A stretch of 1,826 nt of DNA from Naegleria gruberi (taxonomy: Eukaryota): NCBI GenBank assembly GCA_000004985.1, contig GG739323.1; one strand, 5' to 3'. The notes under the pieces were generated by a model, which was given only the letters and a program-made list of their open reading frames with translations, searched no databases and was not told where the DNA came from. Position numbers and translations under genes: made by a program. Within the stretch, counting starts at the first letter, position 1, and each line of letters starts with the position of its first letter. Below, piece after piece: positions 1 to 1,826 of this stretch.

Positions 1-589
1 TAAATCTTGGTGCATGGAATATTTCCTCCAGAAACGATAGCTTGCATTGAAATCAAAGCAAAATCGACAACTGCCTGATCGAATAGAGTTTCAGATGGAT
101 CATTACGAATTCTCATAAATCTCTTGACACCTTTTTGAGGATTTTTAGCTAATTTTTGTAAACGTTCTTCCAATGGAACAATATTAATAACTTTTCCATT
201 TAAAACTTCAGCAATTTCCAAACTTTGAATAAGTAAACGTTCGTATGGAATCATAAATCTATTGAAAGTAAATTTGAATTGGTCAATTACATCCAAATCT
301 CTAATCTTACTCATTTCATTGTAAAGATATGAAAGATCAGAACTTTCAGATAAGAATGACTCGCTCTCCATCACTGCAACATGAACTTTTCTATCTGCGT
401 CTGTACCATTCACTTGAGAATACCACTTTTTCAATCTAGGATCAGCCATCATTCCAATCTTTACAGTCATCAAAGTAATATTCGATACAGTTGGAGAATT
501 TGAAAGGGATTCCATCAGCTCTACATTCGGACGAATATGGCCTGGAAATGGTAATGACAATATCAAAATATTCTTCTCATCACAATAAG
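1..589 (-). CDS. Exon 2, 3'-partial and continuing left of the window, of a secreted or membrane UDP-glycosyltransferase (UGT/GT1 family, N-terminal substrate-binding domain)
   Basis: Minus-strand frame with codons at 5-3, 8-6 and so on is open for the whole span 3..599, with no TTA/CTA/TCA in that plus frame. The translation reads AYCDEKNILILSLPFPGHIRPNVELMESLSNSPTVSNITLMTVKIGMMADPRLKKWYSQVNGTDADRKVHVAVMESESFLSESSDLSYLYNEMSKIRDLDVIDQFKFTFNRFMIPYERLLIQSLEIAEVLNGKVINIVPLEERLQKLAKNPQKGVKRFMRIRNDPSETLFDQAVVDFALISMQAIVSGGNIPCTKI. The segments 'ILILSLPFPGH' and 'FDQAVVD...NIP' resemble conserved UGT N-domain motifs (compare 'ILVYSP..SH' and 'FDVLLAD...NIP'), recalled from memory rather than searched. 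Codon usage (AGA/CGT, GGA, CCA) fits nematode coding sequence. Confidence 0.7.
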
Positions 590-643
590 CTAATTTAATT
601 TAATTAATTTAATTAATTAATATTTAAATAAAATTTATCGTAC
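590..643 (-). other. 54-nt intron, minus strand, GT..AG, consisting of an A/T-rich (TTAAT)n-like tract
   Basis: Minus-strand donor 'caag|gtacgataaatttt' at 644|643 and acceptor 'aaattag|CTTATTGTG' at 590|589. The length of 54 nt is typical of short nematode introns. In the unspliced frame the interval contains a minus-strand in-frame stop (602-600), which is consistent with an intron. Confidence 0.5.
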
Positions 644-740
644 CTTGATGAGAGGAGAATAAAATAGTAGTAACAAGGATGAATAGAATGCAAAATATTA
701 AAGGATTGCTGCTTCGGAAGAGGAAACGATGATTCATCAT
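644..740 (-). CDS. Exon 1 of the same gene: start codon plus N-terminal signal peptide/TM (MMNHRFLFRSSNPLIFCILFILVTTILFSSHQ)
   Basis: ATG at 740-738, with a second at 737-735. It is the first ATG after an in-frame TAA at 773-771. The exon is 97 nt (32 codons plus 1 nt) and ends at a donor AAG|GTACGA. Splicing to 589 restores exactly the frame of the long downstream ORF (G+CT gives Ala). It encodes a hydrophobic stretch typical of a signal peptide, as expected for ER-lumenal UGTs. Confidence 0.55.
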
Positions 741-1002: not shown

Positions 1003-1033
1003 TGTAGGGACCATGGTCTAGTGGTAGAAACAC
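1003..1033 (+). pseudogene. tRNA-like 5'-half fragment (D-arm resembling tRNA-Glu: ccATGGTCTAGTGGtAG); not a complete tRNA
   Basis: The 12-15-mer 'atggtctagtggtag' matches the conserved D-stem/loop of eukaryotic tRNA-Glu from memory. No anticodon arm, T-arm (GGTTCGA) or acceptor pairing follows. The sequence runs straight into array A instead. Confidence 0.3.
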
Positions 1034-1141
1034 TTTCTCAATGAAACACGTTTACAATGAATCCCTTTTGTAACAGATCCCTTCTGTAATGAATCCCTTC
1101 TTTAACGGATCCCTTTTGCAATGAAATCCATTACCAAAAAA
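1026..1141 (+). repeat. Minisatellite array A: about 7 tandem 16-bp units (tgaatcccttttgtaa / cagatcccttctgtaa / tgaatcccttctttaa / cggatcccttttgcaa, plus degenerate flanking units) followed by an A-run
   Basis: Direct reading gives units at 1026, 1042, 1058, 1074, 1090, 1106 and 1122. The core is GRATCCCTTYT. The array ends in ccaaaaaaag. Confidence 0.9.
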
Positions 1142-1169
1142 AGAAATGTATAAAAATAGAATAAAATTT

Positions 1170-1291
1170 GAAACTATCACATCCATAATGAATCCATTCT
1201 TCAATGAATCCCTTTCAGAACGGATCCCTTTTGCAATGAATCACTTCTTCAATGAATCCCTTCCTCACAAATCCCTTTCTCAAAAAAAAAT
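1170..1291 (+). repeat. Minisatellite array B: leader 'gaaactatcacatccataa', then about 6 units of 16 bp (tgaatccattcttcaa, tgaatccctttcagaa, cggatcccttttgcaa, tgaatcacttcttcaa, tgaatcccttcctcac, aaatccctttctcaa), then A9
   Basis: Same repeat family and same orientation as array A. Units start at 1189, 1205, 1221, 1237, 1253 and 1269. Confidence 0.9.
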
Positions 1292-1310
1292 GTAAAATTA
1301 GAAGGGATTT
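1269..1310. other. Hairpin or inverted repeat: the repeat core 'aaatccctt' at 1269-1277 pairs with 'aagggattt' at 1302-1310, a 9-bp perfect stem with a 24-nt A-rich loop
   Basis: The reverse complement of 1302-1310 equals 1269-1277. This is an inverted partial copy of the minisatellite unit just past the A9 run. Confidence 0.4.
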
Positions 1311-1700
1311 AATTGAATATTATCTATTTCCTTTTTTTAGAAAATTTACAATTATTAAAAATATTCAAGAGAGATAGAATAATTTATTGTAAATAGAAAA
1401 ATAACATTTTAATAATATGAACAATTACATTTTTTAAAATTAGAATGAGATTAAATTTTAAAAGAAAATGAATCAAAATTACAAACCATCAAAAAGTGTT
1501 GATTATGCACATTACTGTCATAATAGAAAATGTGAAATCAATCAATTTACAGAAAATAATCAAACATCAAATAACAATAAAAAAACTTGATTTTTAATTT
1601 TCAAAATTATATATTTTTATTAATTTCAAATTAGAGACTACCCCTTCCGCAATTTTTTTTAATACAAATAGATCAAATTTCAATTAAATATTCGAAAGTA
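1311..1700. other. About 390-bp ORF-free A/T-rich spacer (over 80% A+T) between arrays B and C, with a single GC island 'gagactaccccttccgc' at 1634-1650
   Basis: No open frame longer than a few codons on any strand. It has the composition typical of nematode intergenic or intronic DNA. Confidence 0.6.
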
Positions 1701-1812
1701 ACTAACACATTCTCAATGAATCCCTTTTGTAACGGATCCCTTCTTCACGGATCCCTTCCTCATGGATCCCTTCCTCACGGATCCCTTCTTCAATAAATCC
1801 CTTTCATAAAAA
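1701..1812 (+). repeat. Minisatellite array C: leader 'aactaacacattctcaa', one 16-bp unit, then a 15-bp periodicity (cggatcccttcttcac, ggatcccttcctcat, ggatcccttcctcac, ggatcccttcttcaa, taaatccctttcata), then an A-rich tail
   Basis: The leader plus first unit is nearly identical to the start of array A (aacacWttctcaatgaatcccttttgtaacRgatccctt). There are four GGATCC (BamHI) sites within 50 bp. Confidence 0.9.
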
Positions 1813-1826
1813 TTAGTGGTATGATT
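1812..1826 (+). other. Second tRNA D-loop-like fragment (tTAGTGGTATGATT, resembling the tRNA-Pro/Gly D-arm) at the window edge
   Basis: A 13-mer resembles 'CTAGTGGTATGATTC' of eukaryotic tRNA-Pro. The preceding bases (ataaaaat) cannot form an acceptor stem. The fragment is truncated by the window end. Confidence 0.2.

Follow-up and report, generated by a model that had tools for sequence, protein, structure and literature searches.

Three paralogous minisatellite blocks upstream of a UGT-family gene of Naegleria gruberi

Background

Minisatellites are tandem repeats of the VNTR type, with units of 10–100 bp. The locus described here, from the heterolobosean amoeba Naegleria gruberi, shares with them a short unit (15/16 bp), short arrays, degenerate edge units and the homogenisation of unit variants within an array, and it shares with minisatellites affected by segmental duplication the copying of arrays and flanks together as a block. 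It differs from them in that its three blocks (A, B and C) are equal in unit number (seven), and in that unrelated, AT-rich DNA of about 0.4 kb separates one block from the others.

Other described systems have features in common with the locus. Helentron-associated elements (DINE-1, Cg_HINE, pearl) display the same succession of left flank, a few tandem repeats and right flank (PMC7492417, PMC4067079) and likewise occur near genes, and copy B of the present locus has a small inverted repeat on its 3' side. HINE elements, however, have monomers of about 140–180 bp, and besides subterminal inverted repeats of 11–12 bp they possess a 3' palindrome (PMC7492417, PMC4067079), whereas the units here are of 16 bp, subterminal inverted repeats are lacking, and a hairpin is present in B only. 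Likeness to tRNA-derived SINEs lies in an A-box-like sequence before A (TGGTCTAGTGG), in the sequence GAATCCC, which approximates half a B box, and in an A-rich 3' part, but neither the structure nor the sequence of a tRNA was detected in the present blocks, B and C are without the head, the A-run lies within the block, and target-site duplications are missing. Homotypic clusters of transcription-factor sites also have many same-orientation copies of a conserved core of 7–8 bp upstream of a gene; in the present cluster these would be putative sites. Set beside these systems, the locus looks like a new instance of the ordinary minisatellite type, duplicated locally.

The contig and its UGT-family gene

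The window (the whole stretch of DNA analysed, 1826 bp) is an entire small unplaced contig of N. gruberi. The nematode context assumed in the earlier note is wrong, as the product of the minus-strand gene is 100% identical to the N. gruberi entry XP_002668101 / EFC35357 ('predicted protein, partial'), which is its sole database match at that level. The gene has a proposed first exon at nt 644–740 (minus strand), with an ATG at nt 740 and a hydrophobic N-terminus, followed by a 54 nt, very AT-rich intron with GT..AG borders (nt 590–643, minus strand) and a second exon (nt 1–589, minus strand) that runs off the contig. Within the intron (nt 591–637) lies an AT-only, palindromic microsatellite composed of TTAA, TAATT and TTAATTTAA repeats. 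The NCBI partial model XP_002668101 starts at an internal methionine codon (ATG, nt 515–513). Since the upstream exon and the 54 nt intron fit the N-termini of homologous proteins, this public model is probably missing its first exon (nt 740–644). A start at the ATG of nt 740 is supported by the fact that the N-termini of homologues are hydrophobic too; the exon 1 N-terminus aligns with those of three of them (from N. fowleri, N. lovaniensis and a metagenome contig).

Only the N-terminal 228 aa of the protein are encoded within the window, and these gave no match to Pfam. An exhaustive HMMER search recovered nine relatives, six of them full-length: a paralogue from N. gruberi, two proteins from N. 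fowleri, and one each from N. lovaniensis, Willaertia magna and a metagenome contig. Aligned to the N-terminal part they show 33–59% identity, and all six carry a C-terminal UDPGT domain (PF00201) above the Pfam curated cut-off. The UDPGT-bearing N. gruberi paralogue, XP_002669418, is 59% identical. The label of UGT given earlier to this gene appears right by homology, through the UDPGT domain of its full-length homologues, and on the same grounds the gene would be assigned to the UGT (GT1) family. The distance originally reported for the arrays, 290–1070 bp upstream of the UGT start, also agrees with a start codon at nt 740.

Within the gene, the codons for M-E-S-L-S (TGGAATCCCTTTCAAA; nt 499–514, minus strand) include a 12-nt exact inverted match to the repeat unit at nt 1206–1217. 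This match is probably due to chance (E=0.16), and its weight-matrix score falls inside the null range. A 79-aa ORF occupies nt 775–1014.

Structure of the repeat arrays

Tandem Repeats Finder (TRF) reported arrays at nt 1027–1125 (periods 16 and 32), nt 1176–1286 (periods 16, 32 and 15) and nt 1720–1792 (period 15), with scores of 75–107 across periods 15, 16 and 32. When the units are cut in register, each of the three arrays has seven units of 15/16 bp on the same strand, in a block of roughly 110 bp. Array A (nt 1025–1136, plus strand) consists of seven 16-bp units, array B (nt 1172–1282, plus strand) of six 16-bp units and a last one of 15 bp, and array C (nt 1700–1808, plus strand) of units of 16, 16, 16, 15, 15, 15 and 16 bp. 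The unit consensus is A[TC]G[AG]ATCCCTTYYKYA, and loss of a single A from this 16-mer gives the 15-bp unit. A drift of the unit from 16 bp in A and B to 15 bp in C had been described before; units of 15 bp do occur in C, but they comprise the three central units only, and the last unit of B is also of this length.

Array A is degenerate at its edges: AACAC replaces ATCCC in the first two units, and the last unit reads AAATCCATT. Units with ATGAATCCC and with ACRGATCCC alternate, giving a 32-bp dimer, and across A and B together there is a tendency for ATGAATCCC units to take turns with ACGGATCCC units, which accounts for the 32-bp period reported by TRF. In array C the central units have been homogenised to ACGGATCCCTTCYTC.

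The core ATCCCTT occurs 16 times in the window, and 14 of these copies are on the plus strand within the arrays, while dinucleotide-preserving shuffles gave a mean of 0.40 and a maximum of 2. A weight matrix built from the units found 16 strong units, all on the plus strand and all inside the three arrays, and detected no cryptic units above the null elsewhere in the window. Head-to-tail repetition of a unit within the 10–100 bp range of minisatellites is evident in the arrays, beyond chance expectation.

No RNA family in Rfam matched the arrays, and folding z-scores ranged from +0.3 to −1.3, with the exception of the minus strand of B (−2.6), where the value is caused by an inverted unit. A structured RNA was rejected, the scores being unremarkable apart from this explained case.

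The DNA between blocks B and C (nt 1318–1690) is a very AT-rich spacer devoid of repeat units. Across nt 1300–1700 the G+C content is 14–22%, far below the 26–41% of the coding part, and neither repeat units nor significant repeats of any other kind were found there. An 11-nt inverted match (nt 1307–1317 and 1679–1689) was considered as the mark of an inserted element and rejected, as it is at chance level (E=0.64).

Paralogy of the three blocks

The earlier note held that the arrays are copies of one composite unit rather than independent microsatellites, and this is correct: unit number, first and last units, tail and orientation are all common to them. A, B and C are paralogous blocks. The leader and tail strings quoted for them are present as written. 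The leaders are indeed related among the copies, but what was called the leader is simply a degenerate edge unit: the first unit of all three blocks has CAC for CCC. Similarly, the last unit of each block has AAATCC instead of GAATCC or GGATCC. Blocks A and C have a 17-nt leader in common, and AACACWTTCTCAATGAA occurs exactly at nt 1029 (A) and nt 1704 (C), with 0.07 occurrences expected even at up to 3 mismatches. Blocks B and C share the last unit, AAATCCCTTTC. The statement that the first 50 bp of A and C are almost identical stands as a match of 40/44, but only once an extra 16-bp unit, present in A relative to C (nt 1041–1056), is removed; the best ungapped stretch is 30/31 (nt 1714–1744 vs 1055–1085).

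The tail of A (nt 1137–1162, plus strand) has an A-run followed by GAAATGTATAAAAATAGAA, and the tail of B (nt 1283–1304, plus strand) an A-run followed by TGTAAAATTAGAA. Aligned to each other, the two tails agree at about 21 of about 25 columns, and the alignment contains two short gaps. The tail of C (ATAAAAATTAG, nt 1806–1816, plus strand) is shorter than those of A and B, lacks the long A-run and ATGT, and ends at nt 1816 and not at nt 1812 as first given. The motif tgtaWaaaWtag proposed for the tails is not common to them in exact form, since indels distinguish one tail from another. The sequence AATAAA lies close to two of the tails, those of A and C. AAUAAA is the poly(A) signal of N. 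gruberi (PMC11529991), and a reading of the tails as poly(A) signals was discarded because the pattern is inconsistent, B having no AATAAA.

Blocks A and B adjoin each other and stay in register when shifted by 147 bp, which identifies them as a tandem block duplication, and block C follows 528 bp beyond B. The colinearity extends beyond the repeat units in adjacent copies, as expected of a block duplication: A and B keep register and tails, and the leader and the last unit are shared as described above. Pairwise divergence among the three copies is about 18–20%.

Edge motifs and inverted fragments

The 8-mer TAGTGGTA lies immediately 5' of array A (nt 1019–1026, plus strand) and again immediately 3' of array C (nt 1814–1821, plus strand), 5 bp from the contig end; it is found twice, with 0.01 occurrences expected. 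Its recurrence after C, so near the end of the contig, suggests that the homology may reach past the arrays into DNA not contained in the contig. Overlapping in part with the copy before A is TGGTCTAGTGG (nt 1012–1022), which fits the pol III A-box consensus and is found at copy A only; the sequence GAATCCC lies about 45 bp downstream of it, where a B box would sit (nt 1012–1067).

Pieces of the block are also found in inverted orientation. Directly after the tail of B is a partial inverted repeat unit (nt 1296–1317, minus strand; reverse complement TTCAATTAAATCCCTTCT), and a 9-bp inverted repeat pairs nt 1269–1277 with nt 1302–1310, the only one detected, after copy B. Further upstream, ACATTTTTTTTTGAG (nt 801–815) is the exact reverse complement of a 15-mer in the tail of B (CTCAAAAAAAAATGT, nt 1279–1293), and GGTTGAAACACTT, which overlaps ACATTTTTTTTTGAG by one base, matches the leader at nt 1023–1035 in 12 of 13 positions. 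Together these two sequences (nt 801–827) may represent a possible rearranged relic of the block.

Search for related sequences

A pattern scan for three cores at 15/16-bp spacing retrieved 120 metagenome and 25 viral loci. When compared to the window by BLAST, these proved to be unrelated 15/16-bp repeats with similarity at the level of the motif only. The dimer, leader and tail were absent from all 152 loci retrieved (0.99 Mb), and the dimer pattern was not found in the viral contigs. One viral contig (IMGVR_UViG_3300032334_000501, nt 6713–6850) has a 16-bp (TGGATCCCTTTTTTAC)n array that is alike in period and in its GGATCCCTT core, and outside the core its unit matches at 6/9 positions. This resemblance is probably a coincidence, as the core was fixed by the search pattern itself.

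No such arrays were present in 78 kb around the UGT homologues of N. fowleri, N. lovaniensis and related metagenome contigs, a weak comparison for the two Naegleria species because their genes are distant paralogues (33–42% identity). A perfect (GGTTTG)x218 repeat, equivalent to (TTTGGG)n, stands at the start of the N. fowleri contig VFQX01000048.1 (locus coordinates 13067–14376). It reaches the contig end with the G-rich strand outward, and is telomere-like. According to a 2013 survey, nothing was then known of Naegleria telomeres (PMC3622300). A search of the literature found no description of minisatellites in Naegleria or of the present repeat motif.

Origin of the blocks

We consider it slightly better than even (a probability of about 0.55) that the blocks are a non-coding minisatellite block that was locally duplicated in the AT-rich 5' flank of the UGT-family gene. 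The structure of the arrays and their paralogy are directly visible; for the order of events and the mechanisms we infer the following course, and we likewise infer an absence of function. Through replication slippage or unequal exchange, a 16-bp unit, partly organised as a 32-bp dimer, would have multiplied to about seven. The entire block, with the A-rich tail and the degenerate edge units, would then have been copied in tandem with a period of 147 bp, giving A and B, and a further copy placed about 0.5 kb away would have become C. Within C, the variant with the 1-bp deletion (15 bp) would have spread across the central units by homogenisation within the array; the confinement of this variant to contiguous units is what slippage and homogenisation would be expected to produce. 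The small inverted fragments (nt 1296–1317 and 801–815) would be remnants of further local rearrangement. Two features, TAGTGGTA before A and after C, and the inverted pieces of the block, would not be predicted by a simple tandem duplication and seem to speak against it.

These same two features would instead fit copies of a short, N. gruberi-specific, non-autonomous dispersed element with an internal minisatellite, SINE-, MITE- or Helentron-associated-like, that was inserted or amplified near the gene. We regard such an origin as unlikely. In its favor, the blocks are composite with conserved ends, fragments of the block are present in both orientations, and TAGTGGTA occurs at the outer edges of A and C. 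Moreover, non-autonomous elements with central tandem repeats are known elsewhere (PMC7492417, PMC4067079). The tiny unplaced contig stops right after array C, 10 bp past its tail, which would also suit a dispersed element. Assembly breaks of this kind are common at multi-copy repeats.

A reading of the blocks as SINE, MITE or retroposed copies, as had been put forward before, nonetheless failed every structural test run, whether of head, inverted repeats, duplications or the position of the A-run. The A-box-like TGGTCTAGTGG that precedes A, together with the GAATCCC some 45 bp downstream of it, would favor an element of this type and suggested a tRNA-derived head, but ARAGORN found no tRNA genes in the window and Rfam no tRNA match at E<=10, even for the 126 nt of nt 985–1110 submitted alone, and the motif is missing before B and C, so that this candidate was rejected. 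The tRNA head with pol III A and B boxes that marks a tRNA-derived SINE was accordingly not found. No inverted repeat, terminal or subterminal, joins leader to tail in A, B or C, and the blocks have neither the terminal inverted repeats and short target-site duplications of a MITE nor the 11–12 bp subterminal inverted repeats and 3' palindrome of HINE / DINE-1, A and C being without any. The search for target-site duplications around the copies, which had been recommended as a check, gave nothing above chance: sharing between flank pairs goes no further than 5-mers, a level reached by 66% of random flank pairs as well. Conserved sequence (ATGTA..AAAWTAG) comes after the A-run, which therefore lies inside the conserved block and is not a terminal tail; the terminal poly-A with adjoining target-site duplication of a retroposed copy is lacking. 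Also against a dispersed element, A and B abut in tandem, and no related copy was found in the metagenome and viral contigs, protein databases and other Naegleria loci searched. Transposable elements are reported to make up just 0.28% of the N. gruberi genome (preprint 10.64898/2026.06.24.734286), which lowers the prior for a dispersed family.

A possible regulatory role

The arrays may also be viewed as a cis-regulatory module, in which the units would be candidate sites for a DNA-binding factor controlling the adjacent UGT-family gene. Either origin, local duplication or dispersed element, would allow such a role, which we hold to be doubtful. Such a module would offer about 16–21 sites in the same orientation with the core RATCCCTT, some units having in addition a Myb-like YAACGG. 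The arrays are suitably placed, 0.29–1.07 kb upstream of the proposed start codon and in a single orientation, and the 32-bp dimer would correspond to about three helical turns. The 7-bp core is nearly invariant, while positions 12–15 occur in nine variants. Counted over 16 units, mismatches to ATCCCTT affect 2/112 cells, compared to 43/144 at the other positions, in a post hoc test whose units had been selected by the presence of the core, share ancestry and are not independent. The near-invariance hints at constraint rather than neutrality, but it can also come from recent shared ancestry and homogenisation of the units. The absence of comparable arrays upstream of the N. fowleri and N. lovaniensis homologues likewise counts against a regulatory module, with the reservation already made that these are distant paralogues.

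A combination of these two possibilities would make the blocks an undescribed, N. gruberi-specific family of non-autonomous elements of about 115–145 bp, containing a GGATCC/GAATCC minisatellite with a putative protein-binding core, RATCCCTT; we think this improbable.

It is very improbable that the arrays stem from an error of assembly or from contamination, or that they encode a repetitive protein segment. The contig is indeed very short and unplaced, but the arrays of only about 110 bp lie well inside a single read, and copies that differ by about 18–20% are not one read collapsed or duplicated. The neighbouring gene has a spliceosomal intron, and its homologues are heterolobosean. A coding repeat is opposed by stop codons in all six reading frames of A and B and by a protein search with 359 aa of concatenated array translations that returned nothing at E<=10.

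Significance

The locus is a well-defined case of a minisatellite duplicated as a block, in intergenic DNA of a protist whose genome is dense in genes and poor in transposable elements, and as it stands it matters little beyond this. The arrays carry BamHI sites and could provide a length-polymorphic marker for strains. A dispersed distribution of the block, should one come to light, would establish a new family of repeats in Naegleria. To our knowledge, cis-elements are almost unknown in heteroloboseans, and if the core is a binding site it would give a rare handle on heterolobosean transcriptional control. If both were true, the element family would seed ready-made clusters of binding sites into the promoters of a genome that is nearly free of transposable elements.
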